A stretch of DNA of 64,000 nucleotides from a virus (Duplodnaviria > Caudoviricetes): the IMG/VR virus record IMGVR_UViG_3300032285_001531; one strand, 5' to 3'. Position numbers and translations under genes: made by a program. Shown piece after piece: positions 2,373 to 60,766 of the stretch; within the stretch, counting starts at the first letter, position 1; each line of letters opens with the position of its first letter. The notes beneath the pieces were generated by a model. The model was not told where the DNA came from and made no database searches. It saw nothing but the letters and a program-made list of their open reading frames with translations.

Positions 2373-2816
2373 ATGTTAGCAGATAGTTTAAAAGTAGTAT
2401 TAGCAAGTAGTTTCACTTTTTATTTAAAAGCACACAACTTTCATTGGAACGTTGAAGGTTCCAATTTCTCAGAATATCATAAATTTTTGGATGAGTTGCA
2501 AGCTGAAGTGTTTGAGAATGCGATTGACCGTAGCGCAGAATTTATTCGTGTACTTGACCATTATGCTCCAGGTAGCTTGACACGTTTTCATGAATTAAGT
2601 ATAATTGAAGATCAGGTAAAAGTACCACGTGCTGAGTTAATGATTGCTGAATTATACGAAGATAATGCCAAAATCATTGAGATGTTAAAGCAAGTGTTTA
2701 CAATAGCAGAAGAAGCTAACGAAGAAGGCATTGCCAATTTCATAGCAGAACGTATTGATGCACATGGTAAACATTCATGGATGCTACGTAGTTTTCTCAA
2801 AACAAATAGAGAATAA
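2373..2816 (+). CDS. dps: Dps / ferritin-like DNA-binding protein
   Basis: HNFHWNVEG, HKFLDEL, D-x-x-AE ferroxidase motifs, KHSWML C-terminus; 147 aa. Confidence 0.92.
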   Translation: MLADSLKVVLASSFTFYLKAHNFHWNVEGSNFSEYHKFLDELQAEVFENAIDRSAEFIRVLDHYAPGSLTRFHELSIIEDQVKVPRAELMIAELYEDNAKIIEMLKQVFTIAEEANEEGIANFIAERIDAHGKHSWMLRSFLKTNRE

Positions 2817-2875
2817 TGGATCCAAACAACACACCAGACAATGATTTACCTGTAATACCTTATGGGGAACATTAA
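2816..2875 (+). CDS. 19-aa micropeptide MDPNNTPDNDLPVIPYGEH
   Basis: Fills the gap exactly, with TAATG stop/start overlaps at both ends; below the ORF-track cutoff. Confidence 0.5.
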   Translation: MDPNNTPDNDLPVIPYGEH

Positions 2876-3093
2876 TGGAAGAAATCACATCAGATAACAT
2901 CGATCAAATGAGGGAGAAGTTTAAGCCTAAGAAAAAGGCTAACATTATTCCAGAAGAATTGATGAGCAAATCTGCAAGTTATGATGACAAACTACTCTTA
3001 GCTAAACTTCTTTCCGAAAAAGAAAGTAAACGAGTAATCTTAGTTATAAAACAAATGCTTAAAGCAGATAGTAGTAAATCAGGGATCAAATAA
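2875..3093 (+). CDS. Hypothetical protein
   Basis: 72 aa, coupled to both neighbours. Confidence 0.65.
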   Translation: MEEITSDNIDQMREKFKPKKKANIIPEELMSKSASYDDKLLLAKLLSEKESKRVILVIKQMLKADSSKSGIK

Positions 3094-3308
3094 TGGTTGC
3101 CGAAATGTTGATGTATGGCTTTGTTAGTGCCTTTGGATGGTGGGGAGCAAATCATTATATTATTGAACCACACCTTGAATCTAAACCTGTATTAATGGAA
3201 AAAGAAAAGCAAGAACAGAAATGCACTGACTGGGAAGAAAAAAAGAATCCAGACGGAACGATTAATAGATTTAGAACCTGCGAATCGTTATCAAAGACTT
3301 CACCTTAG
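3093..3308 (+). CDS. Small membrane-anchored protein
   Basis: Hydrophobic N-terminus, C-terminal Cys pair. Confidence 0.65.
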   Translation: MVAEMLMYGFVSAFGWWGANHYIIEPHLESKPVLMEKEKQEQKCTDWEEKKNPDGTINRFRTCESLSKTSP

Positions 3309-3374
3309 GACCGTGAGGGCGCGGCTGCTGCGTTATCCAGAGGAGTCGTGCCCCGAGGGTAAAAGTGAGCCTAA
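3305..3374 (+). ncRNA. Candidate structured RNA in the desaturase 5' leader
   Basis: GC-rich island: TTAGG 3305-09/CCTAA 3370-74, GGGCGCGGC 3317-25/GTCGTGCCC 3345-53 (two G-U pairs), TCC-AGA-GGA hairpin, GA/GA internal loop. Confidence 0.45.
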
Positions 3375-3380
3375 CTAATT

Positions 3381-4085
3381 ATGACAATACTACTTTATAC
3401 ACTAATCACTACACACATTACAATTCTATGTGTCACACTATTTTTACATCGTGGACAAGCACATAAAGGATTTGTATTTCATCCTACATTAAGTCACTTC
3501 ATGCGTTTTTGGCTATGGCTTACAACTGGGATGATTACAAAAGAATGGGTAGCAGTACATAGAAAACATCATCAACTTACTGACATACAAGGTGATCCAC
3601 ATAGCCCACATGTATATGGTATACAGAAAGTAATGATTGAAGGTGCATTATTATATCATGAAGCAGCAAAAGACGAGAACATGGTAAAGCATTATGGAGT
3701 AGGAACTCCTGATGACTGGGTAGAACAAAACGTATATACTAAACATAGTAAGTTAGGAATCAGTTTACTATTAGTATTAGACATGCTATTCTTTGGGTAT
3801 TGGGGAGTAGTAGTTTGGGGAATACAAATGATATGGATACCCTTCTGGGCTGCAGGAGTTATTAATGGCTTAGGACATTGGTATGGATATCGCAATACTG
3901 ACACTAAAGACTTCTCTACAAACATCACAAAAATAGGTATTGTTGTGGGTGGAGAAGAACTACACAACAATCATCACGCTGAACCCGCAAATCCAAAATT
4001 CAGCAGAAAATCCAATGAATTTGATATCGGTTGGCTATATTTTCGCATATTTTCTCTTTTAGGTCTTGCTACGCTACGAGACTAA
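3381..4085 (+). CDS. Membrane fatty acid (delta-9 type) desaturase
   Basis: Three His boxes HRGQAH, HRKHH, HNNHH; hydrophobic segments; FDIGW C-terminal motif. Confidence 0.92.
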   Translation: MTILLYTLITTHITILCVTLFLHRGQAHKGFVFHPTLSHFMRFWLWLTTGMITKEWVAVHRKHHQLTDIQGDPHSPHVYGIQKVMIEGALLYHEAAKDENMVKHYGVGTPDDWVEQNVYTKHSKLGISLLLVLDMLFFGYWGVVVWGIQMIWIPFWAAGVINGLGHWYGYRNTDTKDFSTNITKIGIVVGGEELHNNHHAEPANPKFSRKSNEFDIGWLYFRIFSLLGLATLRD

Positions 4086-4101
4086 AACGATAAATATATG
4101 A

Positions 4102-4986
4102 ATGAGAATTACCGATTTTAAAATACACGATACCGAAAAACTAGACCATATACTAGTAAAACTCTGCCAAATGGTTATTAATGGCCAAAAGCAGGATAGT
4201 GACTATTTTGGTATGGTTGCTGCTTGTGTCCTAGACACCCATAATGAAGAAGTCTGTGCCCTAAACTATGTAGTAAAAGACGGCAAACATGTACATGCAG
4301 AACGAGCAGCAATAGACAAATATCACAAACAATATGGTGATATTCCAGCTGGTAGCATTATCATTACAACTTGCAGTCCATGCAGTGAAATGATGACTGA
4401 GCGTTACGGAGATTCTTGTACTAACTTAATAGAAGAAGTTGGTGTACATAAAGTATATTGCGGATACGAAGATCCTACACAAGATAGCAGTGAAAATTAT
4501 GTTCATAAAACATTCCATGTAAAACAAACCCGCAATGAAAAGATTATAGAACTATGCAAATCGTTTGCGGACACTTTCTTAGAAAAAGAAAAGATTGCTG
4601 AAACTAAACATATTATGGAAGAAATTAGAAAAGTCAATGCAGATGAGTTAACTCCAAAGTTTGTTGCATGGGCTAGTAAAATACTAAAATTAGAAACTAC
4701 ACCAGAAATAGAATTAAGCTACGATACAGAAGAAGCGCAAGACGGACATCATACTGGTCGTCATACTGAAGGTGATAACAAAGTTTGGGTATATGCTAAG
4801 AACAGAAACTTAGTTGACATATATCGTACAATATTCCATGAATTAGTTCACGTAAGACAAGGTGAATTAAACATGATTAAGCCCGGTGATAGTTATCCCG
4901 GCAGTCCAATAGAACAACAAGCTGATGTACTTGCAGGTAAGTATATCAAAGTATTTGGAGCAGAACATCCGGAGATTTTTCAATGA
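4102..4986 (+). CDS. Zn-deaminase domain fused to a zincin-like HExxH domain
   Basis: HVHAE...TTCSPC...C in the N-terminal half; TIFHELVHVRQ...E in the C-terminal half. Confidence 0.7.
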   Translation: MRITDFKIHDTEKLDHILVKLCQMVINGQKQDSDYFGMVAACVLDTHNEEVCALNYVVKDGKHVHAERAAIDKYHKQYGDIPAGSIIITTCSPCSEMMTERYGDSCTNLIEEVGVHKVYCGYEDPTQDSSENYVHKTFHVKQTRNEKIIELCKSFADTFLEKEKIAETKHIMEEIRKVNADELTPKFVAWASKILKLETTPEIELSYDTEEAQDGHHTGRHTEGDNKVWVYAKNRNLVDIYRTIFHELVHVRQGELNMIKPGDSYPGSPIEQQADVLAGKYIKVFGAEHPEIFQ

Positions 4987-7061
4987 AGATTAAAAACGTT
5001 ATAAGCGAAGATTTACCCCCACCAGAAAATGCACGTAAGACACAGATTGCTGGCACATTACCTACATACAAGAAGGCAGCTGCCATGCTTGATAAGACAG
5101 GTGTAAAGGGCAAGGCATTAGACTTTGGTGCAGGATTAGGTTTAGGCACAGGTGAGTTAGGAAAAGATGCAGAAAGCTATGAGCCTTATCCAGGCGAAAA
5201 GTTCAAGCCACACTTTGTCGATGTAACACAGATACCAGATAATGCATATCATAAGATTGTAAACTTAAATGTATTGAATGTTGTTCCAAATGCAGGTGAT
5301 CAAAGAATACGTGATGCCATTGTTAAGAACATTGGTCGTGTACTAGCACCAGGTGGTGTAGCAATTATTACTACACGTGGTAAAGATGTATTAACTATCA
5401 AAGGTACTCCTGGCGAAGAGCCAATGAGCATGATTAGTAAGATAGGTACATATCAAAAAGGCTTCTCGCAAACTGAACTAAAACAATATGTTCAAAGTGT
5501 ATTAGGTGACGGCTTTGATGTATCTAGTGTTAAGTTAGGCCCAGCTGGTGTAATGATTAAGAAACATGACCAGTATAACGAAGAATGGAGTGCCAAATAC
5601 AAGCGTAGTATTAATTGTAGTCATCCAAAAGGATTTAGTCAAAAAGCACATTGTGCTGGTAAGAAGAAGCACAATGAAAGTGTTGAGATGGAAATGGTAT
5701 GTGAAGATTGCGGCATGTGCCAAACACACGGAGATAATACAAAAGATAAATTAGATGAGTTGAAATGCTGGTCTGGATATCATAGAGTTGCCGGTACCAA
5801 AGCAGGCTTTCCGGGTAGTTGTGCAAAAAATAAAACTAACGAGGAACAAGATATGTCAGAAGGTCGTGAACAATGTCCTGAATGCGGTGGTGCAATGTAT
5901 TCAGAAGAAATGATTAATGAAAAGAAAGATGCTTGCTACTATAAAGTAAAAAGCCGTTACAAAGTATGGCCAAGTGCCTATGCTAGTGGTGCATTAGTTA
6001 AGTGCCGTAAAAAGGGTGCAAGTAATTGGGGTAATAGTACTAATGAAGATATCGTTTCAGAATATGTAGACCAATTAGATGAGAATTTACATCAGTGGTT
6101 TAAAGAAAAATGGGTACGATTTGGTCCAGATGGTAAGATACGTGGTGATTGTGCTAGAGGTGATGACAGTGAGGGTAAGCCAAAATGTTTACCACAGAGT
6201 AAAGCACACAATTTAGGTAAAAAAGGTCGTGCAAGTGCAGCATCAAGAAAGCGCAGAGAAGATCCTAATCCAGAGCGTACTGGTCCAGCAATCAATGTTA
6301 ACACTAAGAAAAAATCAAATGAAGGTATGGCAGAAGCAACCGGAGACAAGCCATTTGATAATATGATGAAGGGCATTGTTAAAGGTACTACAAAACAAGC
6401 TACTGCTGATCGTAAAGAAAAAGAAAAACAAAGTCAAGAAAGAGCAAGAGCCGCATTTGGAAATATGTTTGGCGGTGGTAATCCTGCAGACAAACTAAGT
6501 ATCAGAAAAAAAACTGACGAAGGCAACGATTTTAACAGAATGATGAATAAGATTAGTTCTTCAGAATCATTGCACACTAGAGAAGCATTAGAACTAATGT
6601 CTGAACTTATGCATCAAGCAGGTGCATCATACAAAGAAGCACTACAGCAAGCAAGTTTAAGTTTTGAAATTGAACCTTCTAAATTACATAAGTTATATCA
6701 GCAAGAAATCACTAGTCTAGAAGAAGGTGAGACATGGGCAAAGCATAACAACCCACGTGCTGGTGGCATGAGTAAGAAATCAGTAAACAGTTATCGCCGT
6801 AGCCATCCTGGCAGTAAAATACAAACAGCAGTTACTACTAAGCCAAGTAAGTTAAAGAAAGGTAGTAAAGCAGCTAAACGCCGTAAGAGTTTCTGCGCTA
6901 GAATGCGTGGCATGAAGAAACATCGTACTGGTGCAAAGACAGCGAGAGATCCAAATAGCAACATCAATAAGTCATTACGTAGATGGCATTGCGAAAGCAT
7001 TGAACAAATGCAAGAGTTGGTAATGTTAGCCGAACAGTTTATTGCAAAACATAAAAAATGA
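4983..7061 (+). CDS. Class I SAM methyltransferase domain followed by concatenated small basic/Cys modules
   Basis: ALDFGAGLG motif I and NLNVLNVV; then Lys/Arg-rich units (CSHPKGFSQKAHC, KDACYYKVK..WPSAYASG, RRKSFCARM) between acidic xxE spacers. Confidence 0.7.
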   Translation: MKIKNVISEDLPPPENARKTQIAGTLPTYKKAAAMLDKTGVKGKALDFGAGLGLGTGELGKDAESYEPYPGEKFKPHFVDVTQIPDNAYHKIVNLNVLNVVPNAGDQRIRDAIVKNIGRVLAPGGVAIITTRGKDVLTIKGTPGEEPMSMISKIGTYQKGFSQTELKQYVQSVLGDGFDVSSVKLGPAGVMIKKHDQYNEEWSAKYKRSINCSHPKGFSQKAHCAGKKKHNESVEMEMVCEDCGMCQTHGDNTKDKLDELKCWSGYHRVAGTKAGFPGSCAKNKTNEEQDMSEGREQCPECGGAMYSEEMINEKKDACYYKVKSRYKVWPSAYASGALVKCRKKGASNWGNSTNEDIVSEYVDQLDENLHQWFKEKWVRFGPDGKIRGDCARGDDSEGKPKCLPQSKAHNLGKKGRASAASRKRREDPNPERTGPAINVNTKKKSNEGMAEATGDKPFDNMMKGIVKGTTKQATADRKEKEKQSQERARAAFGNMFGGGNPADKLSIRKKTDEGNDFNRMMNKISSSESLHTREALELMSELMHQAGASYKEALQQASLSFEIEPSKLHKLYQQEITSLEEGETWAKHNNPRAGGMSKKSVNSYRRSHPGSKIQTAVTTKPSKLKKGSKAAKRRKSFCARMRGMKKHRTGAKTARDPNSNINKSLRRWHCESIEQMQELVMLAEQFIAKHKK

Positions 7062-7969
7062 GAGCAATAGAGTTTTTAGTAGAGTATGATCGTGCTAAGA
7101 CGATGATGAACTTAGGTAATATCCTACATCAAAAAATGTTGAAGGATCGTACTGTACAACGTATATTCGGTGATGACCCTGTAGAGATAATCGATCCGGC
7201 TGTGATAATTGAATTTGCATTAGATAGATTTCAAGAGGCAGATCCTAGTCCTAACAAACAATATGTTCAATGGATAGCAAGAACCTATGCTAAAGATCCT
7301 AACTTCAAATTTGAAGATGTATTAAGTACTGTTCATCCATACTTAGAAAAGTTTTATAAACTAATCAAACGTAAAAAGATTCCTAGTCCACAAAACGATA
7401 TAAACAAGTATTCTGATTTTAAAGTTTTTATGGGAGTACTGGATCAATTTCCTGATCCAGACGGTGAAGCAATACAAAAAGATAAAGGTCATGCTTTCAC
7501 ACTATACGAAGATGATAAGTGGAGAGTTATAGTACCACAAGATGAACCAGCAGCATGTTATTATGGTCAAGGCTCACGTTGGTGTACTAGTGCAACCAAA
7601 GCTAGAAACATGTTTAGCTATTATAATAATATATCTCCATTGCTTATTGCGATTCCAAAAGATCCATTTCATCCAGGTGAGAAGTATCAATTACACTTTG
7701 GTATATCAATTGATGATTACCCAATGAAAAGTGATAGTGATATAGAAGATTATATTAATCAAAATGATGACATGTCTGATTCAGGACTTGATGAAGTACT
7801 TGAGTATGGTCAAATAATGGATGAGCATGATGATCCAATGTCATTCTATGATATGACACGTAGATTGGGTGGTAGTTGGGATGGAATTATTGACGCATAC
7901 ATTGCTAAATTCCCAGATCGTAAATGGCAATTACTTATGAATTTAGAACAAGTTGAAGGTCGTGATTAA
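7058..7969 (+). CDS. Hypothetical with CTS-like N-terminus
   Basis: MRAIEFLVE; ACYYGQGSRWCTS motif. Confidence 0.7.
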   Translation: MRAIEFLVEYDRAKTMMNLGNILHQKMLKDRTVQRIFGDDPVEIIDPAVIIEFALDRFQEADPSPNKQYVQWIARTYAKDPNFKFEDVLSTVHPYLEKFYKLIKRKKIPSPQNDINKYSDFKVFMGVLDQFPDPDGEAIQKDKGHAFTLYEDDKWRVIVPQDEPAACYYGQGSRWCTSATKARNMFSYYNNISPLLIAIPKDPFHPGEKYQLHFGISIDDYPMKSDSDIEDYINQNDDMSDSGLDEVLEYGQIMDEHDDPMSFYDMTRRLGGSWDGIIDAYIAKFPDRKWQLLMNLEQVEGRD

Positions 7970-10689
7970 TGAGAGCAACTGAGTTCATCACAGAAGCATT
8001 TGATAAGCCCTATGCATATAACTGGCAGCGTGGTGATCATGGTGATTACGATATACTAGTTAAATTACCAGACGGTTCACCACTAAACATTTCATTCAAT
8101 CACGAAGGTGATGACGTATGGCATGTTGCATTTGATCGTGGGCATAGTCAAGAAATCACTGGTGAAGGTGATGCACAAAGAATATTTGCCACAGTATTAC
8201 ACAGCATTAAACAATTCATTGGTAAACAACATCCAGAGAAGTTATATTTCTCTGCAAGCAAACAAGTTGAACCAGGGCAACGCAGCGAGAGCAGAGCGAA
8301 TTTATATAGTAGAATGATCAAGCGTTATGCTAGTTCTATGGGATATGACTCTGTTACTGATGACTTTGGTAGAGATAGTGTAACGTATATACTAAACAAA
8401 AAGCAAGGTGTGACAGAAGATACCGAAAACAGCATGTCTACTGAAGATATGATTGCTTATCTAAGACAACACCATGATAGTAATCTTCATCAGGACTACA
8501 TAAATCACTTAAACACATTCAGTAAGTTTGTACTACGAGATATTCCAGTGAACACAATTAAAACAGAGTTACCTGGCCTAGATAAAGCAAAAGTAGAACA
8601 ATATAAAAAAATGGATTTCAGCAAGGCACCTCCTATTGTAATGGGAAATGGTCATATCTTAGATGGTTATCACAGAACAACAGTAGCAAAAGCATTAGGT
8701 ATTCCTACTATCAAAGGTTATGTTGGTATTAAACATCAAGGTGTGGCGGAAGGCTCGGAAAACAATGGAATTAGTTTCAAGGTACAAAAAGGTAAAAACA
8801 AATTTGCAACTACTTTAAGTGTTGGTGTCAACCCAGTAGGAGTATACCAATATGATGCTGATACAGGTCGTAGTGTGGCCGAGGTTTATCCAGAATTCAA
8901 AGGCAAAGGATTAGGTAAATTATTAGTTTTACATGCTATCTATACCGCGGCCAAATTGGGATTAGATTTCCAAGAAGATGAATCAAGAACTTCAGAGTAT
9001 GATAATGTATTAGATAGTTTGAGTAGCAACGGTTATATTGTAGATGACGATGGTTATTGGTATGTTACCGGCGAAGGTGAACAATATCTACAACAAGCAT
9101 TAAAGCAAGATGTGGCGGAAGGCTCATTAAACGAAATTTACAAAATGCCGCCTACTAAAGATAGTAGTCAAGGAATGGCAATTTGGGCTTACAATGATGC
9201 AGTAGAAAAAAAGTCGCCTGTGTTTTATAGAGATAACAATGTAATAATTTTCAAATTCAATGAATATTTACTGCGATATATCATATTGCAAGATGGAAAC
9301 CCTGTGTTATATATCGGGTTAAGTAGATTCCTTGATGGATATAAATCCGGTACTGTTGCTACTGAAATAGAAGGGCGCGGCAAGGGTCTGGCACAAAAAG
9401 CATATTTGAATGCCAGTGATATTTTAGGTGTACCAATATATAGTGATACCACACAAACTGATGCAAGTAGGTTGGGTATATGGGATAAACTGATTCAACA
9501 ATATCCAGATAGAATTGTTGGGTACGATCAAAAAACTAACAAGGATTTACCTTTGTCAATGTCTGATAAAGGACCAATAGTGAATCAAAACCAACCAATA
9601 TATGTTAACAATAAAGATACTAATAAACCAATAGCACCAAATCAACGATATAGAACAAGAATTTTAAAACTACTACCTATCAAGCAAGGTGTGGCAGAAG
9701 GCAGAGAAAATTATAATGGTATAAATTTGTTACTTCAGCGAGATGATGATGAAGTTTTTGTTAAAGCCTCAGCAGGTGGTAGAGAATTAGGTCATGTATT
9801 GTTTGTAGATGAAGGTGACTACTTAATGCCACAAGACCTAGAAGTTGATGAACGTTTTCAAGGTCAAGGTATTGCTCAAACAATGTATGACTATGTTAAA
9901 AGCAAAGGATATAAGATACGCCGTAGTGGTCAGCAAACTGCTGCAGGTGCAGGCTTCTGGGACAAACATCGCCCTGAACAGAATGTTTGGGAAGGTACAG
10001 CAGACGATATTAACAAAATGTTTAACAACATGTATGATCCGTTGACAACAAATTTACAACGTGTAGCATTGATGGCTATGCAGGGTAGACAAGATGAAGC
10101 GGGAATGCAGTTGAATCGTGTAATCAAAGATGCAAGTCCAGAAGCACAAAAGAAAATTATTGATGCTGTAAACAATATCAAACCAGTAACAATCAATGGC
10201 AAAGTAGCAGACAGTTCAACATTAGATAAAAGTCATACACATCAAGACTGGATCTTAAACACATTTATTCCTTGGGTAAAGAAAACTATTGGTCATCAAG
10301 ATGTTACTGAAGATGCAACACCTACAATGGGTATCAATGTAAGAAGTGACGGTGATATTGACTATGCTAGTTTAATCATTGATGGCAAGAAAAAATATGA
10401 ATCTCGTCAGACTGATAGTCTTAGACCATATGTTGGTAAAACAGTTGCAATTGTTAGAACTGGTAAAGGTCCTGCAGTTGCAATTGGTCAAGTAACAGTA
10501 GGTGACCCAATTGTAGTAGATGCAGAAAAGTTTGACAAAATGCGCAAACAACATTTAGTACCACAAGGCAGCAAGTTTGATATAGGTATCGATGCTACCA
10601 AATATCTATATCCAATGATTAATCCAGTTCGTTGGGATAATGAAAAACTAGTAAAACAAAAAGGTATTGTTGCTAGAAAGATTGATTAA
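7969..10689 (+). CDS. Polyvalent polyprotein: unknown domain, ParB/Srx-like, 3x GNAT, unknown domain, ASCH
   Basis: MRATEFITE; ILDGYHR (ParB-like); FKGKGLG, GRGKGLA, FQGQGIA (GNAT motif A); GINVRSD..IIDGKKKYESR (ASCH); six Q(G/D/N)V(A/T/W)E linkers. Confidence 0.8.
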   Translation: MRATEFITEAFDKPYAYNWQRGDHGDYDILVKLPDGSPLNISFNHEGDDVWHVAFDRGHSQEITGEGDAQRIFATVLHSIKQFIGKQHPEKLYFSASKQVEPGQRSESRANLYSRMIKRYASSMGYDSVTDDFGRDSVTYILNKKQGVTEDTENSMSTEDMIAYLRQHHDSNLHQDYINHLNTFSKFVLRDIPVNTIKTELPGLDKAKVEQYKKMDFSKAPPIVMGNGHILDGYHRTTVAKALGIPTIKGYVGIKHQGVAEGSENNGISFKVQKGKNKFATTLSVGVNPVGVYQYDADTGRSVAEVYPEFKGKGLGKLLVLHAIYTAAKLGLDFQEDESRTSEYDNVLDSLSSNGYIVDDDGYWYVTGEGEQYLQQALKQDVAEGSLNEIYKMPPTKDSSQGMAIWAYNDAVEKKSPVFYRDNNVIIFKFNEYLLRYIILQDGNPVLYIGLSRFLDGYKSGTVATEIEGRGKGLAQKAYLNASDILGVPIYSDTTQTDASRLGIWDKLIQQYPDRIVGYDQKTNKDLPLSMSDKGPIVNQNQPIYVNNKDTNKPIAPNQRYRTRILKLLPIKQGVAEGRENYNGINLLLQRDDDEVFVKASAGGRELGHVLFVDEGDYLMPQDLEVDERFQGQGIAQTMYDYVKSKGYKIRRSGQQTAAGAGFWDKHRPEQNVWEGTADDINKMFNNMYDPLTTNLQRVALMAMQGRQDEAGMQLNRVIKDASPEAQKKIIDAVNNIKPVTINGKVADSSTLDKSHTHQDWILNTFIPWVKKTIGHQDVTEDATPTMGINVRSDGDIDYASLIIDGKKKYESRQTDSLRPYVGKTVAIVRTGKGPAVAIGQVTVGDPIVVDAEKFDKMRKQHLVPQGSKFDIGIDATKYLYPMINPVRWDNEKLVKQKGIVARKID
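8404..10314 (+). repeat. Dispersed in-frame linker repeat CAAG(G/A)TGTGGCGGAAGGC (QGVAEG)
   Basis: Copies starting at 8404, 8737, 9106, 9685, 9979 (degenerate) and 10297; the copies at 8737 and 9106 match at 19 of 20 nt. Confidence 0.85.
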
Positions 10690-10701
10690 TCTCCAATTTA
10701 G

Positions 10702-10730
10702 TTGTATTCTTAACACATTTCTGCTATAAT
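10702..10730 (+). promoter_or_regulatory. sigma70-type promoter with extended -10, leaderless
   Basis: TTGTAT-17-TATAAT preceded by TGn; ATG 10737 follows after a 6-nt gap. Confidence 0.7.
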
Positions 10731-10736
10731 AATCTT

Positions 10737-11348
10737 ATGAACAAGATTGGCAATTTTGAATCCATTGGTTGTGATTGTGAGTTTGGATTGGTTCAACGAA
10801 CCTTGAATTACGAACCTATGACTTTATTAAGATGGTCTAGTATAAATTTACACAGTTTAGTTAGAATGATTGACGATGATTTTAAAGATTTAAAAAATAT
10901 TGATACATATGATATTGATAGAAATGACGATTTAGAATACATGGTTACTAATACAAGTTATCATCTTTGGTCACATACTGACACACGACATGACACTTCC
11001 AAATCTGAATTAATAGAATCATCCTTCAAACGAATAAATTATTTGCAACGTCAATTTGTAAAGGAAGCAAAAAATAATAAAAAAATATATGTTCACAAAT
11101 CTAAAAGTATTACTACTGAAGAAATGCAATTATTATATAATGCAATGAAATCATTAGGTGCTGATAGAATTTTATTTGTACTAAAAGACATTGACCTAAA
11201 AAATACGTTTGTTGAATCAGAATTTGGTTTGATTGCTTACATATCTGATTTTTATCCAAACACAAAGTTTGATGAATGGGAATCTATTCTTGATTATGCA
11301 CTTGAGTACTTTAATGAAAATAACATATCCCATAATAAATCAGTCTAA
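10737..11348 (+). CDS. Hypothetical Cys-motif protein (DUF1796-like, tentative)
   Basis: N-terminal FESIGCDCEFG...LLRWS resembles the DUF1796 SLGxxC start; first gene of the ligase-ACP cassette. Confidence 0.45.
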   Translation: MNKIGNFESIGCDCEFGLVQRTLNYEPMTLLRWSSINLHSLVRMIDDDFKDLKNIDTYDIDRNDDLEYMVTNTSYHLWSHTDTRHDTSKSELIESSFKRINYLQRQFVKEAKNNKKIYVHKSKSITTEEMQLLYNAMKSLGADRILFVLKDIDLKNTFVESEFGLIAYISDFYPNTKFDEWESILDYALEYFNENNISHNKSV

Positions 11349-12462
11349 CGAATTTAGAAAAACAGTTATAGAACAACTTTACTATTTGTCCGAACATATT
11401 AATTCTTTACAAATTGAAAATGATATGTTAATAATTAGTATAGATGATCCTTTATGTGTTGATGAAGCTGAAATTATAACATCGGTAAAAAGAATAATAG
11501 AAACTACGGAAAAAAGTTTTAGAGCCTTTAAAGAAACAATTTCATATGAATCGGAAAACAAATCTACTTACAACTTAGATCCTAATATATGGTTAATTGA
11601 AAACGGTGATTTATTAACACATAGTAATGGAACATATGTTTATACTGGTACTTTAGCAAAAGTTATTACTGGATTAGATAATTTCTTACAAAAATTATGT
11701 ATTAAGTTTGGAGCAGTTGAATATATATTTCCAACTACTATGCCGTTTGACTCATTAAACAACTCAGGATACATAAAATCTTTCCCACAACATGTAGGAT
11801 TTATTTCATATGGTCAAAAAGGATACGATGGTTTTACAAAATTAGTAACTGCTTTAGATGATAATCAAGTTGAAAAATACTTAGGAGACGTTAAATTAAT
11901 ACTAGCACCTACTGTTTGCCATCATTTATTTCAAACTATTAAACTTTCTAAATCTACTAAGAAATTGATTGTTACCGGAAGTTCAAAATGTCATAGAAAT
12001 GAAGATAAAACTGCATATGGAATTGAAAGATTAAACAGTTTCAACATGCGTGAAATAATTTTTATTGATGAACCCGATATAGTATCAAATAAACTAACAG
12101 AGTTTTCAAATATATTAAATGATATTTTTACTAAATGGAATATTTATTTTATAAAAATGAATGCTACTGACCCGTTCTTTGCAGGGGAAATGTCAAATAA
12201 AAAAATATATCAATCTATGCTAGATTTAAAAAACGAGTACAAATTTCATTTACCTTATAGTAATAAATGGCTTGCTACAACTTCTATAAATTATCATAGA
12301 GATAATATACTATATGGATTTGATATTAATACTGATAAGTTGCATTCAGGTTGTATAGCATTTGGATTAGAAAGAATTGCATTAAGTTTATTCTCTCAGT
12401 TTGGTACTAATACTAAAGAATGGCCTACAAATTTAACAGAAGATTTGGGGATTAACCTATGA
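11314..12462 (+). CDS. Class II aaRS-like (SerRS-like) amino acid:[carrier protein] ligase
   Basis: LAPTVCHH, motif 2 CHRNE..ERLNSFNMRE, TSINYHRD, motif 3 SGCIAFGLER; adjacent ACP gene; start moved from 11233 to ATG 11314. Confidence 0.8.
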   Translation: MKITYPIINQSNEFRKTVIEQLYYLSEHINSLQIENDMLIISIDDPLCVDEAEIITSVKRIIETTEKSFRAFKETISYESENKSTYNLDPNIWLIENGDLLTHSNGTYVYTGTLAKVITGLDNFLQKLCIKFGAVEYIFPTTMPFDSLNNSGYIKSFPQHVGFISYGQKGYDGFTKLVTALDDNQVEKYLGDVKLILAPTVCHHLFQTIKLSKSTKKLIVTGSSKCHRNEDKTAYGIERLNSFNMREIIFIDEPDIVSNKLTEFSNILNDIFTKWNIYFIKMNATDPFFAGEMSNKKIYQSMLDLKNEYKFHLPYSNKWLATTSINYHRDNILYGFDINTDKLHSGCIAFGLERIALSLFSQFGTNTKEWPTNLTEDLGINL

Positions 12463-12710
12463 TAGAAGATATTGTAAAATCAGTAATAGAAAAATATGCA
12501 AAAAAACCTATTACCAAAACAGAAAATTTTATTGAAGAAACTGATATTGATTCTTTATCATTAATAAACGTGTTAATGGATTTAGAAGAAGAACTTAACA
12601 TTGAATTTGATTTATCTGTTATGGTCATAGAAGATGTCAGTACCCTAGAAGATATGGTAAATTACGTTACAAAATTAAAGAATCAAGCGTTGCAAATCAG
12701 CAAAAATTAA
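12459..12710 (+). CDS. Acyl/aminoacyl carrier protein
   Basis: 83 aa, acidic; IDSLSLINVLMDLEEELNIEF with the phosphopantetheine Ser. Confidence 0.88.
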   Translation: MIEDIVKSVIEKYAKKPITKTENFIEETDIDSLSLINVLMDLEEELNIEFDLSVMVIEDVSTLEDMVNYVTKLKNQALQISKN

Positions 12711-12718
12711 TATATAAT
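12690..12718 (+). promoter_or_regulatory. sigma70-type promoter for dsbA-like/polymerase
   Basis: TTGCAA-17-TATAAT overlapping the end of the ACP gene. Confidence 0.6.
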
Positions 12719-12741
12719 TAACTCTTTTATAAGGAAATAAC

Positions 12742-13011
12742 ATGGATACTATTGAATCAAGAACCTTTACCCTCGATCAAAAGACAAAGCTTACCCAAAT
12801 TATCAATGAAGGTATGGCAGTAATGCAAGAGATTGATGACTTGAATGGTGGCTTATCAGACACTATTAAAGCAGTAGCAGAAGAAATGGAAATCAAACCT
12901 AGCGTATTAAAGAAAGCTATTCGTGTAGCACACAAAATGGAATTAGGTAAAACTCAACAAGAGCAAGAATTACTAGAAAACATTCTCACAACTGTAGGAA
13001 AAACTCTTTAA
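12742..13011 (+). CDS. T4 DsbA-like dsDNA-binding protein
   Basis: 89 aa, helical; IKAVAEEMEIKPSVLKKAIRVAHK pattern; directly upstream of the polymerase. Confidence 0.55.
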   Translation: MDTIESRTFTLDQKTKLTQIINEGMAVMQEIDDLNGGLSDTIKAVAEEMEIKPSVLKKAIRVAHKMELGKTQQEQELLENILTTVGKTL

Positions 13012-15710
13012 TGTATGTAGACGCAATTCACGACAGGGATAATGATAAAATCCATGTCGTAGAACGTACACCTGACGGCAAACGCAGATATCAAGAATAT
13101 CCTGCGAACTATGTGTTATATTACAGTGATCCTAAAGGCAAGTATCGTAGCCTCTATGGTGATTCAGTAAGCAGATTCAGTACACGTAAGCGTGGTGAAT
13201 TTGAAAAGGAACGTAGAATACAATCAAACAAACAATTGTTTGAGAGTGATATTAATGTGGTGTTTAGATGTCTAAGTGACAACTATCTTAATGTTGATGC
13301 TCCTAAACTACATACTTGTTTCTTTGACATTGAGGTTGACTTTGATCCTGACAAAGGATTCAGTCCAACTACAGATCCATTCAATCCAGTAACAGCAATC
13401 TCATTATACTTAGATTGGCAAGACTTACTGGTCACACTATGTATTGCACCAAAGCATATGAGTGATGAAACTGCATGGGAAATAACAAAGAAGTTTGAAA
13501 ACTGTTTGTTATTTAAAACCGAAACAGAAATGTTCGAAACCTTTTTTCAACTTATTGAAGATGCAGATGTAATGACTGGTTGGAACTCAGAGGGATATGA
13601 TATACCTTACATGGTTAATCGTGTCACTAGAGTAATGAGTAAAGATGATACACGTAGATTTTGTCTATTAGGTCAACTACCTAAGCCTAGAACATATGAA
13701 CGTTTTGGTAAAGAAGAACAAACATACGACTTGATTGGTCGTATTCATATGGACTATTTGCAATTGTATAAGAAGTATAACTACGAATCACGACATAGCT
13801 ATAAACTAGATGCAATTGGTGAGATGGAAGTTGGTGAGAACAAAACTCAATACGAAGGTACCCTTGATCAATTATACAATAAAGACTGGGAAAAGTTCTT
13901 GGAGTATAACAGACAAGATACGATGTTGTTAGTTAAGATTCACAATAAATTAAAATTCTTAGACCTAGCAAATGCACTAGCACATGAAAATACTGTGCTG
14001 TTGCCAACTGTTATGGGTTCAGTTGCAATGATTGAACAGGCTATTTTTAATGAAGCACATGAACGTGGATTAGTTGTACCTGACAAAAATAGAAAGGAAC
14101 ACAATGATGAACAACAAGCAGCAGGTGCCTATGTTGCTACGCCGAAAAGAGGCATGCACGAATATGTTGGTGCCGTCGATATCAACTCGCTCTATCCCTC
14201 GGTTATTAGGGCCCTCAACATGGCGCCAGAAACAATTGTCGGTCAAGTTAGACAAACCCTAACTAATCAATACATGCGAGATAAAGGTCTACGTCTTGCA
14301 ATGGAAAAGAAAAGATATAAAGAAGGTGATGATGAAGTTACCGGTAGTGTACTATGGGAGGGATTATTTAGTGCGTTAGAGTATACCGCAGTAATGAATC
14401 AAGAACGTGGCACTATATTAACTATTGATTTTGAAGATGGTCGTAGTGAAGAACATAGTGCTGCTGAAATATGGAAGATGATATTTGATAGCAATAGACC
14501 ATGGATGCTTAGTGCTAACGGTACAATCTTTACATACGAACAAGAAGGAGTTATTCCTGGTCTATTATCACGTTGGTACAGTGATCGTAAAGACATGCAA
14601 AAGAAACTCAGAGAATCAACTACTGATGAAGATAAAGAGTACTGGGATAAACGACAATTGGTTCGTAAGATTTTACTTAACTCTGCATACGGTGCATTGT
14701 TGAATGAACATTGTCGTTTCTATGATAAGCGTATTGGTCAAAGTGTTACATTAAGTGGTCGTCAAATTGTTAAACACATGATGAGCCAAATCAATGAATG
14801 TATCGCAGGTGACTATAACCATGAAGGTGAAGCAATTGTTTATGGTGATACTGACTCATGTTATTTCTCAGCATACAGTGTATTGAAACCTGAAATAGAT
14901 AAAGGTGAAGTACAATGGGATAAAGATATGTGTATTCAATTGTATGACAATATCGCAGACCAAGCTAATGAAAGTTTTCCTGCATTTATGGAGAAAGCAT
15001 TTCATGCTCCTCGTAAGAATGGTGCAATCATTAAAGCAGGTCGTGAACTGATTGGTGATCGTAGTATCTTTATTACAAAGAAGCGTTATGCTATTAATAT
15101 CTATGACAAAGAGGGTAAGCGTAAAGATACAAACGGTAGTACTGGGCAAATTAAAGCTATGGGTTTAGATTTGAAACGTGCTGACACGCCTAAATATGTA
15201 CAAGAGTTTTTGATGAGTGTATTGCAATGTGTACTAGATGGTGGCACACGTGATACCGTAATTGATATGATTAAAACATTTAAATTGCAATTGGCTCAAC
15301 AAGAACCTTGGACTAAAGGTAGCCCTAAATCAGTGAATAAGTTAACTATGTATGGTGACAAAGAAAAGGCAGCAGGTAAAACTAACATGCCTGGTCACGT
15401 AAGAGCAGCGTTAAACTATAACTATTTGCGTAATGCTAATAGTGACAACTATAGTCAAAAGATTGTAGATGGTATGAAAATTGTAGTATGTAAACTTAAA
15501 CCTAATCCATTAGGATATACAAGTATTGCATACCCAACTGACGAACTTAGATTACCTAAATGGTTCTGTGAGTTACCATTTGACGATTATGAAATGGAAA
15601 AAACACTAGTTGATGAAAAGATTGATAACTTGTTAGGAGTTATGAATTGGGACTTAAGAATAAGCACTGACGTTAATTCTACGTTTGATGACTTCTTTTC
15701 GTTCGGGTAA
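13011..15710 (+). CDS. polB: DNA polymerase family B (T4 gp43-like)
   Basis: Exonuclease DIE, GWNSEGYD, YNRQD; polymerase DINSLYPS, KILLNSAYG, YGDTDS, KKRY. Confidence 0.97.
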   Translation: MYVDAIHDRDNDKIHVVERTPDGKRRYQEYPANYVLYYSDPKGKYRSLYGDSVSRFSTRKRGEFEKERRIQSNKQLFESDINVVFRCLSDNYLNVDAPKLHTCFFDIEVDFDPDKGFSPTTDPFNPVTAISLYLDWQDLLVTLCIAPKHMSDETAWEITKKFENCLLFKTETEMFETFFQLIEDADVMTGWNSEGYDIPYMVNRVTRVMSKDDTRRFCLLGQLPKPRTYERFGKEEQTYDLIGRIHMDYLQLYKKYNYESRHSYKLDAIGEMEVGENKTQYEGTLDQLYNKDWEKFLEYNRQDTMLLVKIHNKLKFLDLANALAHENTVLLPTVMGSVAMIEQAIFNEAHERGLVVPDKNRKEHNDEQQAAGAYVATPKRGMHEYVGAVDINSLYPSVIRALNMAPETIVGQVRQTLTNQYMRDKGLRLAMEKKRYKEGDDEVTGSVLWEGLFSALEYTAVMNQERGTILTIDFEDGRSEEHSAAEIWKMIFDSNRPWMLSANGTIFTYEQEGVIPGLLSRWYSDRKDMQKKLRESTTDEDKEYWDKRQLVRKILLNSAYGALLNEHCRFYDKRIGQSVTLSGRQIVKHMMSQINECIAGDYNHEGEAIVYGDTDSCYFSAYSVLKPEIDKGEVQWDKDMCIQLYDNIADQANESFPAFMEKAFHAPRKNGAIIKAGRELIGDRSIFITKKRYAINIYDKEGKRKDTNGSTGQIKAMGLDLKRADTPKYVQEFLMSVLQCVLDGGTRDTVIDMIKTFKLQLAQQEPWTKGSPKSVNKLTMYGDKEKAAGKTNMPGHVRAALNYNYLRNANSDNYSQKIVDGMKIVVCKLKPNPLGYTSIAYPTDELRLPKWFCELPFDDYEMEKTLVDEKIDNLLGVMNWDLRISTDVNSTFDDFFSFG

Positions 15711-58453: not shown

Positions 58454-58767
58454 TAAGTTTTAGGTCCTGCAGATTGTTCTATAACTTCAACACCAGTACC
58501 TACTCCAAGGATACATGAAGTATCACCGTAAGTATCTATTACTGTAAATGTTTTGGTTTCAGGATTTCCCCAAAAGGATATCATATGTTGACTTGATCCT
58601 AATCCTTTTCCCACTACTATTGGTACCTCAACATATTCTTTTTTTAATGTCTGCACTATAACTGCAGTATCATCACATATTACTTCAAACGGTACAGAAT
58701 GTTGCTCTGCATTACTTAGAGTTGGTGCGATACACAGTATCCCAATCAGAAGGTAAATTTTGTTCAC
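58453..58767 (-). CDS. Secreted hypothetical protein
   Basis: Signal peptide; Cys pair. Confidence 0.7.
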   Translation of the reverse strand: MNKIYLLIGILCIAPTLSNAEQHSVPFEVICDDTAVIVQTLKKEYVEVPIVVGKGLGSSQHMISFWGNPETKTFTVIDTYGDTSCILGVGTGVEVIEQSAGPKT

Positions 58768-60766
58768 GTAGTTCTCCTATTCTTTCTATCATCATATGAT
58801 AGTATTTGTCCATCTCTGAATCAAATTCCCCATGAAGTTGGTTCAGTAGTTCTAATGCTTCATCCCACTTTTGCTTGCGGTAGTGATCCAGCATCAGGTC
58901 ATGTTCTACACGTGATACTAAATATTCTGCCATTGAGTTTGCATCTGTTTTTAATACTGTAAAGATTCTAACACCTTCAGTCTTACCTTTTACTGCTATA
59001 ATATCTAATTCTAATGTGAAGTAATCATCACTTATCTGTTCTGCTGTCTTAGGTCCTAATACAATCTTGACACCATAAGGCTTAGACTGTCCTTCCAAAC
59101 GTGAAGCAAGATTGACACCATCACCAAGGCAAGTATAGTCAAAACGTTGACTAGACCCCATATTTCCCACAACAACAGTATCGGTATTGATTCCCAGACC
59201 CATACCAAAAGCTGGCACACCTTCTTTCGTAATTTCTTCATTGAACTCAGTTAAACTTTCCATCATCTCTAATGCCGTTTTAACAGCATCTTTTGCATGA
59301 TTGCTATTACCTACTGGAGCATTCCAGAAAGCCATTTGTGCATCGCCAATATACTTGTCTAATGTACCTTTGTTTTCTAGTATCTTTTTTGTCATAGCAG
59401 TCATGTACCTATTCATGATCTTTGTAAGACCCTGAACGTCTTTGCCATAATGTTCACTGATTGTTGTAAAGCCACGAACATCAGTAAACATAATAGACAA
59501 TTCTTGGCTTTCTCCACCTAACTTAAGTAGATCGGGTTGTCGTTGCAATTGTGCAACTAAGTCTGGTGATAAGTATGTACCAAACTGTTTCTTAATTTGT
59601 TGTTTTTGTAAAAATTCACTTATGAACTTAATGCCATAGCAATGTAGCATAACCAACACACTACTAACAATAAGCGCAGTGGCATCGACAAGCCATTTGT
59701 ACTTGGTAAAAGTATAAAAACTACCGGGCACAACGCTGCCAATAATAATGACAGATATAATAATTCCAGCATATGTCCACCTTGATATAAAAATAATTAT
59801 TAGACCTACTAGTATCAAGCCTAATATCTCAGCACCGTCTATCCAATCAGGACGTTCGATGTTAACTCCATTAATCATTGTGCCAATTACTGCTGCTTGT
59901 ACATCTTGTGGATATACTGCACCACGTGCTGTTGGTACTGGATTAGCTATACCTGCTGCACTTGTTCCTACGATTACTATTGCACCACCAAAGTCTGCGG
60001 GTAAGTCAACTGCACTTACACTCTTATTACTTTGACTCCAATCAATCCATATACGACCTAATGGATCAGTGCTGATTGGTCCGAACTGAGGTATACGCAT
60101 TTTCTCTACACCTAGTTCATTTAATTTAATTTGAAAACTTGGATCACCTGCAGCAACACGTAATGTTTCTAATGCTATTGAAGGATATAGTAAATCATTT
60201 ACACTTACTACTAAAGGTAATCTACGATTAACACCATCAATCTCAGGCATTACATTTGCAATACCAACACCTGCAGCATTTTCTTCTAATGGGCTTACGT
60301 TAGCAATTAATCCAGGATACACTACAATTCTATCAACAAATTCAGGACGCATAATACTTACACCAACTTGTTTAGGTGTATTCTTACTACGTGCTGAAGG
60401 TGTGTTACTTAATACTACAGGATGAGTTGCTAATGATTCTGCTAGTGCTTCATCTTGTCCGTTACGATCGGCTTCAGGCATTAATATATTCCACACTACA
60501 AGCCCCGCATGACGTTTATATAATTCATCAATTAGATTAGCATATTCATTTCTGGGTAAAGGCCATTGTCCATACTTATCTAGTGTAGCCTCATCTATGT
60601 TTACGGTGTAGATGTTGTTTTGTGTTATAGGTTGACTGATTATTACAGTATCAAAATATCGTAGACGAATTGATTCCACAAATGCAGGATCTGCAATGCG
60701 CAATAATGCTAACAATGCTAGTGTTATTAGTGAAGTCCAAGGGCTTAATAATATTTTCTTAATCAT
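58712..60766 (-). CDS. CHASE2-domain class III adenylate cyclase
   Basis: IDEATLDKYGQWPLPR, PEIDGVNRR (CHASE2), three TM segments, FTDVRGFT, DKYIGDA, GDGVNLASRLE. Confidence 0.92.
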   Translation of the reverse strand: MIKKILLSPWTSLITLALLALLRIADPAFVESIRLRYFDTVIISQPITQNNIYTVNIDEATLDKYGQWPLPRNEYANLIDELYKRHAGLVVWNILMPEADRNGQDEALAESLATHPVVLSNTPSARSKNTPKQVGVSIMRPEFVDRIVVYPGLIANVSPLEENAAGVGIANVMPEIDGVNRRLPLVVSVNDLLYPSIALETLRVAAGDPSFQIKLNELGVEKMRIPQFGPISTDPLGRIWIDWSQSNKSVSAVDLPADFGGAIVIVGTSAAGIANPVPTARGAVYPQDVQAAVIGTMINGVNIERPDWIDGAEILGLILVGLIIIFISRWTYAGIIISVIIIGSVVPGSFYTFTKYKWLVDATALIVSSVLVMLHCYGIKFISEFLQKQQIKKQFGTYLSPDLVAQLQRQPDLLKLGGESQELSIMFTDVRGFTTISEHYGKDVQGLTKIMNRYMTAMTKKILENKGTLDKYIGDAQMAFWNAPVGNSNHAKDAVKTALEMMESLTEFNEEITKEGVPAFGMGLGINTDTVVVGNMGSSQRFDYTCLGDGVNLASRLEGQSKPYGVKIVLGPKTAEQISDDYFTLELDIIAVKGKTEGVRIFTVLKTDANSMAEYLVSRVEHDLMLDHYRKQKWDEALELLNQLHGEFDSEMDKYYHMMIERIGELREQNLPSDWDTVYRTNSK

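Follow-up and report, generated by a model that had tools for sequence, protein, structure and literature searches.

What kind of protein joins seven small domains through six variants of a single short peptide, and why should the DNA of that peptide be conserved as well? The question is raised by the open reading frame (ORF) at positions 7969-10689 of a 64,000-nucleotide stretch of viral DNA (hereafter the window) taken from the IMG/VR record IMGVR_UViG_3300032285_001531 (Duplodnaviria; Caudoviricetes). The host genome of this ORF is that of an uncultured T4-superfamily jumbo phage. We consider it somewhat probable that the ORF encodes a polyvalent effector array carried as capsid cargo, which would be cut at its linkers by a protease of the gp21 type and whose modules would be exchanged as cassettes at the linker DNA.

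The translated protein consists of a leader and seven modules separated by six copies of the motif Q-x-V-x-E-x, which occurs even once in just 11 of 20000 shuffled versions of the protein. The reading frame holds all six linkers at the positions where an earlier note, made from the sequence alone, had placed them. The features of the gene are:

7969-10689, + strand: putative cargo polyprotein gene of 906 amino acids with leader, seven modules and six linkers (from the ORF and its translation)
7969-7995, + strand: leader MRATEFITE, ending in I-T-E and resembling the capsid-targeting sequence (CTS) of T4
7996-8403, + strand: module 1, DUF6934-like (Pfam DUF6934, E-value 1.5e-5, under its cut-off)
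8404-8421, + strand: linker 1, QGVTED, at residue 146, within a segment with AlphaFold confidence (pLDDT) below 50
8422-8736, + strand: module 2, ParB/sulfiredoxin-like, with a DGYHR motif; folded in the model, with weak Foldseek matches to ParB-N and sulfiredoxin
8737-8754, + strand: linker 2, QGVAEG, consensus DNA, at residue 257, pLDDT below 50; left breakpoint of the module 3 cassette
8755-9105, + strand: module 3, GNAT-like, a recently exchanged cassette; weak GNAT matches in Pfam and Foldseek
9106-9123, + strand: linker 3, QDVAEG, consensus DNA, at residue 380, last five residues with pLDDT below 50; right breakpoint of the cassette
9124-9684, + strand: module 4, with a GNAT-like R-G-K-G-L motif; no Pfam match, copies of 85-91% identity in other architectures
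9685-9702, + strand: linker 4, QGVAEG, with GCA replacing GCG, at residue 573
9703-9978, + strand: module 5, GNAT acetyltransferase (Pfam Acetyltransf_7, E-value 1.4e-8 in the whole-protein scan)
9979-9996, + strand: linker 5, the variant QNVWEG, at residue 671
9997-10296, + strand: module 6, no assigned family; weak DUF4197 match only
10297-10314, + strand: linker 6, QDVTED, at residue 777
10315-10686, + strand: module 7, ASCH domain (Pfam ASCH, E-value 7e-6, over its cut-off)

By their similarities, the modules thus appear to comprise one DUF6934-like and one ParB-like domain, three GNAT-like domains, one domain of unknown family and an ASCH domain. An AlphaFold2 model of residues 138-395, made from a 28-row alignment covering two modules, contains two confidently folded domains, with pLDDT values below 50 at residues 138-152, 257-265 and 381-395, which takes in linkers 1 and 2 completely and the final five residues of linker 3. 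The linkers, three of which were modelled, are accordingly predicted to be flexible segments between folded domains. Foldseek comparison of the two modelled domains with the PDB gave nothing at E ≤ 0.001; weakly but consistently, one domain matched ParB-N and sulfiredoxin and the second matched GNAT.

A protein search yielded 752 mosaic homologues at E ≤ 1e-5 among 8000 candidates scored, and none of the 752 has the full seven-module architecture. Apart from one identical fragment, their best local alignments have 41-94% identity and extend over 11-46% of the query. When the modules were mapped on the 119 best-scoring homologues, 118 of them complete proteins, 76 different module strings emerged in which nearly every adjacency is represented; domain order among relatives, which the earlier note had proposed to compare, is therefore not fixed. 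The strict linker is present in 112 of the 119 homologues, up to eight times in one protein and with a median spacing of 126 residues, and 59 of the 118 complete proteins start with MRAxEFxxE. The IMG/VR loci show likewise mosaic module arrangements.

The exchanges that produced these mosaics can be located at the DNA level. Positions 8740-9123 of the window, which run from linker 2 to linker 3 and include module 3, are 96-99% identical to DNA of G001, G002, L126 and L128 and 89% identical to L027. On either side of these matches the sequences cannot be aligned and code for different modules: G001 has a deaminase, a ParB-like module, module 1, module 3 and another module, in that order, and G002 has module 1, module 3 and a basic tail. 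Followed base by base, the identity of module 3 begins within the left linker and ends at the end of the right one. Similarly, module 2 has 77% nucleotide identity to L001, ending at the linkers, and about ten independent linker-to-linker cassettes of 156-450 nucleotides were found. Mapping of breakpoints, another check suggested by the earlier note, showed that 46% of 277 internal alignment ends (≥88% identity, about 130 loci) lie within 10 nucleotides of a linker centre, as compared to 0.7% for random positions. It is well supported that the modules move as in-frame cassettes between phages, with the linkers as exchange points. The variant QNVWE is found in homologues mostly after an M5-type GNAT module, regardless of the module that follows. 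Upstream modules therefore seem to carry the linker with them as far as its Glu, and the next residue seems to go with the module downstream.

The linkers are also conserved as DNA. The 18-mer CARGRTGTGGCGGAAGGC is found exactly at 8737 and 9106 and with one mismatch at 9685, where 0.03 occurrences would be expected in the window. In the long ORFs of the window GCG makes up 4% of Ala codons, GTG 10% of Val codons and GGC 17% of Gly codons, and the linker codons are therefore unusual, as had been noticed for the copies at 8737 and 9106. An unbiased sample of 31 linkers, from five loci picked solely by homology of the module proteins, gave CAA in 30/31, GGT in 30/30, GTG in 28/29, GCG in 26/28 and GGC in 15/22 cases, against backgrounds of 0.79, 0.49, 0.20, 0.07 and 0.22, respectively; the synonymous sites, whose free variation would have contradicted the earlier note, do not vary freely. 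The same codon bias occurs in 88 linkers of pattern-selected loci that do not themselves match the search word, and the base before CAA is mostly G, whichever residue is encoded. The codons of the leader MRAxEFIxE vary freely (GCA/GCC/GCT, ATT/ATC/ATA, ACA/ACT), and the leader is thus conserved at the protein level only. Throughout IMG/VR, the consensus 18-mer occurs at at least 119 loci with at least 153 matches; among the 153 matches listed, 150 are read as QGVAEG within an open frame of at least 100 amino acids, often several per ORF, and the open frames that hold consensus matches have a median length of 562 amino acids. The synonymous variant made of common codons was found 44 times, each time singly and never in an ORF that holds another linker. 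Over a large pool of such genes, the linker word (G-CAAGGTGTGGCGGAAGG) stays the same at its synonymous sites. An internal translation start at the conserved GTG was considered and rejected on reading the sequence, since the Shine-Dalgarno (SD)-like AAGG lies only one base upstream.

What the junctions have in common at the protein level was examined with the residues upstream of every copy of the seven modules in the 119 homologues, which gave 213 distinct contexts. The pattern [VILM]-x-E is found within 14 residues before the module start in 207 of these (97%), against 12.7% of random intra-module windows. Module 1 alone has 68 distinct contexts, with Glu at P1 in 67 and V, I, L or M at P3 in 67, and nine different residues, including Trp, Asp and His, at P2. 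Hence P1 is almost always Glu and P3 almost always hydrophobic, with P2 free to vary. Module 1 is preceded by EFITE at the N-terminus of the window protein, by QGVTE at an internal position in G001 and by NLTE in ORF252 of Vibrio phage nt-1, and leader and linker are therefore positionally equivalent. The CTS of T4 is MKTYQEFIAE. The cuts in T4 Alt are at ITE-6 and LTE-619, the proteases of phiKZ and SPN3US use S/A-x-E, and in all three phages cleavage is after Glu (PMC5694885; PMC9026906). The pattern of these candidate sites matches the known specificity of T4 gp21-type prohead proteases.

The Vibrio phage nt-1 just mentioned (L141, HQ317393.2, 419-1929) is a cultured, T4-like phage. Its two-module ORF252 starts with MTIIFE and has the NLTE junction before the module 1 homologue, and the neighbouring ORF253 starts with MIEFLTE; ORF252 may serve as an experimental model for cleavage at the junctions.

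A protease of the required type is encoded by relatives. The 178-kb contig G001 (about 51% complete) shares module 3 with the window at 97% DNA identity and has a DNA polymerase with 62% amino-acid identity to that of the window. Its gene order is portal, acidic core protein, Peptidase_S77 (contig positions 151867-152502, E-value 3e-25), scaffold-like protein and gp23-type capsid protein (E-value 1e-98), and the propeptide of the capsid protein has four L/I-x-E sites within its first 42 residues. Three of five further large linker-bearing contigs (G004, G006 and G007) also have Peptidase_S77, and the 99%-complete contig G005 gave no significant match to this family. G001, G004, G006 and G007 carry the linker together with a DNA polymerase that is 62-63% identical to that of the window. 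The latter, a family-B enzyme encoded at 13011-15710, has 42-49% identity to its counterparts in the jumbo phages Phosso, Atu_ph07, XaC1 and CBB.

The polyprotein gene is the last of four ORFs (4102-4986, 4983-7061, 7058-7969 and 7969-10689) whose neighbours overlap by ATGA or TAATG, and which therefore form a single tight gene block:

4089-4096, + strand: GATAAATA, similar to the T4 late promoter TATAAATA, 5 nucleotides before the ATG of ORF 4102; a weak, single motif
4102-4986, + strand: first of the four genes, a fusion of a cytidine/dCMP deaminase and a small zincin-like domain with HExxH (deaminase part, Pfam dCMP_cyt_deam_1, E-value 1e-9)
4983-7061, + strand: second polyprotein in the same operon, with a methyltransferase, a Zn-ribbon-like module, DUF5872 and a basic DUF6321 tail (Pfam and ORF scan)
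7058-7969, + strand: gene of 303 amino acids with leader MRAIEFLVE, translationally coupled to both neighbours

The spacers that the earlier note had described within ORF 4983-7061 are indeed present as junctions, QDMSEG at 5847 and EGMAEA at 6321. In the same ORF a module follows YNE, and its counterpart in an L004 protein sits N-terminally, after EFITE. The very basic DUF6321 module at its C-terminus (6756-7061) is also the last module of proteins in L133 and L132; it is often preceded by ...ENF or LEE, and solo genes occur at L164 7760-8173 and L168 6671-7105. By its charge, this module could be a DNA-binding analogue of internal proteins. In the relative L168 the polyprotein gene also lies just upstream of the DNA polymerase gene, but with different modules.

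The reading that we favour combines these elements. The leader MRATEFITE would act like the T4 CTS and draw the chain into the prohead core, where leader and six flexible linkers would each offer a hydrophobic-x-Glu site for a gp21-type (Peptidase_S77) protease that cuts after the Glu. Cuts after every linker Glu are predicted to free the seven modules as pieces of 11-22 kDa, about the size of T4 internal proteins, and these would remain in the head and enter the host along with the DNA. Independent of cleavage, homologous exchange at the conserved linker DNA would join modules in frame. Packaging, cleavage and injection of the polyprotein are what we infer from the genes. The earlier note had given the linker two roles, that of a maturation site and that of a microhomology for the exchange of cassettes. 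The second is well supported by the results on module order, codons and breakpoints, whereas the first is plausible on the indirect grounds of the junction rule, the CTS-like leader and the Peptidase_S77 genes of relatives.

Several observations weigh against this reading. The protease and capsid genes are known from contigs of relatives and not from the window phage itself, and the gene block adjoins the DNA polymerase operon and is not located in a head module, with GATAAATA as the only late-promoter-like motif detected. G007, a complete 374-kb relative that does have the protease, has just one or two linkers and few leaders, so that heavy linker use is not universal in the clade. The QGVAEG linker was found in no cultured phage; megablast of positions 4000-14000 against cultured phages gave no match, and tblastn of the whole protein against them found module 1 alone, in KVP40-like Vibrio phages. 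As to the exchange of cassettes, some contig pairs in the breakpoint counts are redundant, the sequences compared all come from metagenome assemblies, and 18-19 nucleotides are little homology for general recombination to be efficient. If joints out of frame or within domains are selected against, this alone could gather the surviving breakpoints in linkers, and given so short a homology, the share of such selection in the outcome may equal that of the homology. That the short homology itself drives the exchanges is, in this sense, what we infer.

Of the other explanations, the one that survives best is that the linkers are uncleaved flexible tethers in multi-enzyme chains that stay intact in the cytoplasm or the virion, the linker being conserved only as a recombination joint that spreads with the cassettes. 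It has the merit that breakpoints and DNA conservation need no protease, and the position of the genes beside replication genes fits it. We nevertheless hold it to be unlikely, as it leaves unexplained why hydrophobic-x-Glu with a free P2 is present in 97% of the junctions, including degenerate ones with unrelated sequence and DNA, and why leaders ending in I-T-E occupy the exact linker position on the same module.

A bolder interpretation concerns the nucleic acid rather than the peptide. The 19-nucleotide word might be a dedicated recombination signal, either a Chi-like hotspot or the target of a phage nuclease that triggers gene conversion between co-infecting phages; the polyprotein genes would make up an in-frame cassette system without an integrase, with the six linker residues doubling as the prohead-protease site. 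We regard this as doubtful; if true, it would mean that jumbo phages share a library of injected effectors across the clade. The linker joint is a translated word of 18-19 nucleotides and, on reading the sequence, has no dyad symmetry. It differs from an integron in that an attC-type structured site is lacking and no integrase was found among the window ORFs scanned.

The cutting could also be done by another enzyme, namely the zincin-like peptidase encoded by the C-terminus of ORF 4102-4986, acting on the linkers before packaging or after injection and leaving the prohead protease uninvolved. The operon does encode an HExxH domain, for which L001 has a leader-bearing solo gene, and processing of polyvalent proteins by zincin-like metallopeptidases was predicted by Iyer et al. 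2017 (PMC5512222). This proposal is, in our view, quite unlikely. The domain fits no peptidase family convincingly (best Pfam match Peptidase_M78, E-value 0.16) and is absent from the deaminase proteins of G001 and L004, and P1 Glu with a hydrophobic P3 is the documented signature of the prohead proteases of T4, phiKZ and SPN3US. Moreover, the solo zincin-like gene of L001 has its own leader, MRANQFITE, and the domain therefore looks like cargo.

It is very unlikely that the synonymous conservation serves translation or mRNA function, with the SD-like AAGGUG and the rare GUG and GCG codons pausing the ribosome between domains. The linker does hold AAGGUG, and GCG and GTG make up only 4-8% and 10-21% of their codon families. 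However, fixation extends to GGT, the commonest Gly codon (30/30), and to the base before CAA, which indicates a fixed word rather than slow codons; the variant linkers QNVWE and QDVTE have the ordinary GTT; and the breakpoints at linkers would be left unexplained. Pausing would in any case be compatible with cleavage and cassette exchange at the linkers. Finally, the idea that the mosaics are chimeric metagenome assemblies formed at shared repeats is highly implausible: only assemblies were compared and shared modules of 380 nucleotides might mislead an assembler, but the linker of 18-19 nucleotides is below the usual assembly k-mer size, the same architectures are found again in independent samples (three metagenomes supplied L001-L003, P0101 corresponds to the G001 protein, and P0006 to the last 556 residues of the window protein), and the reading frames stay open over the median length given above.

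How does a protein that is shuffled, and would be cut, at its linkers relate to known systems? The analogy suggests that it works as a multi-module version of the internal proteins IPI-III and Alt of T4 with their CTS and gp21. Shared features are a short leader at the N-terminus (type M-K/R-x-x-E-F-I-x-E, with hydrophobic-x-Glu at its end), products of 10-20 kDa (predicted ones in the present case), diverse cargo that is mostly enzymatic or directed against the host, and a gp21-family protease in the phage or its relatives. Unlike the T4 proteins, which are single-module and receive one or two cuts, the present proteins have up to eight or more modules chained by a dedicated linker. In addition, no module of the polyprotein is homologous to the T4 internal proteins, and its packaging is a prediction.

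Similar to the polyvalent proteins of phages and conjugative elements (PMC5512222), the polypeptides described here have many unrelated effector domains, including GNAT, ParB-like, deaminase and methyltransferase domains and, in a relative, ART-PolyVal; both groups are predicted to be delivered along with the DNA and to be processed into units. The number of unrelated effector domains in polyvalent proteins is two to fifteen, and the seven modules delimited here by linkers, homology breakpoints and the fold model of residues 138-395 fall within that range. Iyer, Burroughs, Anand, de Souza and Aravind (2017) proposed zincin metallopeptidase domains as the processing agent and described no conserved linker; the word 'linker' is absent from their paper (PMC5512222). 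In the present system, unlike theirs, a junction peptide with the prohead-protease signature and DNA-level conservation bounds every module. The class has signature domains (MPTase-PolyVal, ART-PolyVal, DdrB-ParB, LPD families, SNF2/methylase hubs). The window proteins contain no match to PolyVal or LPD Pfam families at E ≤ 0.1, and ParB-like and GNAT folds are present. To our knowledge, no general cutting site has been defined for polyvalent proteins, although their cutting has been predicted since 2017. A site of the form hydrophobic-x-Glu, most often Q-G-V-A-E-G, would supply a concrete rule for this processing in at least hundreds of proteins, and would tie effector arrays to the capsid-targeting and prohead-protease pathway of T4, so that it could be tested with existing T4 tools.

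Cleavage of many head proteins after Glu, sometimes at several sites, is also known from the inner-body and ejection proteins of the jumbo phages phiKZ and SPN3US (gp175/gp245, S/A-x-E). There, unlike what we propose, the cuts mostly remove propeptides and do not take apart chains of independent enzymes, and neither a DNA-conserved linker nor shuffling has been described. For the shuffling, the closest precedent in the T4 superfamily is the T-even gp38 adhesins, in which short conserved words, the glycine-rich motifs, are in-frame recombination joints (PMC3157838). In gp38 the hypervariable segments lie between these motifs, which are elements of the structural core of one domain in one gene. 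The joints of the present proteins are disordered inter-domain linkers which are shared by many genes and phages and are probably protease sites too.

In the Rhs toxins of bacteria the border motif is also a self-cleavage site and hence has a dual role. The motifs PxxxxDPxGL of Rhs and VENN of CdiA, polymorphic toxins with orphan cassettes, border exchangeable modules and lie in DNA homology used for recombining new ones (PMC7043789), as the linker does here. These bacterial toxins differ from the phage arrays by having one variable C-terminal toxin per protein, immunity genes and long flanking homology, whereas here arrays of many modules have a word of 18-19 nucleotides on each side and no immunity genes. 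A secretion region, VENN or PxxxxDPxGL motifs and a downstream immunity gene were looked for in the translated proteins and their neighbours, and none was found; the likeness to Rhs/CdiA toxins is functional only. A full-text literature search for QGVAEG returned no phage paper, and no description of the linker was found in the literature. The family offers an unusually clean case of natural in-frame domain shuffling, in which near-identical modules occur in different chains and are bounded by a synonymously conserved word. It suggests how jumbo phages may renew their sets of injected enzymes, and the linker might be of use as a natural linker for engineered phage cargo.

Some further observations concern relatives. 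At L001 1284-3701, an 805-amino-acid relative is composed of a cytidylyltransferase-like domain, an HD domain (RelA/SpoT-type HD_4), a QGVTED linker and a sub-threshold ART-PolyVal domain, the latter with an E-value of 4e-5, under the cut-off, and located directly after the linker. The two ORFs between the polyprotein genes of L001 were considered as GIY-YIG homing endonucleases, which was rejected as they have no Pfam match. The contig of L001, G003, encodes at 130865-134522 the DNA polymerase that is closest to that of the window (75-76% identity), split over two open frames with a gap of about 920 nucleotides; an intron, an intein or an endonuclease insertion could account for this. In L164 (1391-2343) and L166 (9052-14033) a superoxide dismutase gene and a solo GNAT gene flank the polyprotein gene, and of these two loci only L166 has a LysM/SLT lysozyme gene after it.

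Within the window, positions 2373-4085, which lie among the leader-bearing genes, encode a fatty-acid desaturase (PF00487, E-value 3e-8) and a protein resembling Dps/ferritin. The latter is assigned by its N-terminal motif and because L168 has a PF00210 gene at the corresponding position. Downstream of the polyprotein gene, positions 10737-12710 encode a class II aminoacyl-tRNA synthetase-like protein (tRNA-synt_2b, E-value 6.5e-6) beside a small acidic ORF of 83 amino acids, which could be a carrier protein; with 30% GC this stretch is more AT-rich than its flanks. At the far end of the window, positions 58712-60766 on the - strand encode a 684-amino-acid protein with 38-39% identity to adenylate/guanylate cyclase-like proteins of Pelagibacter phage HTVC008M and of the Methylophilales Melnitz phages.

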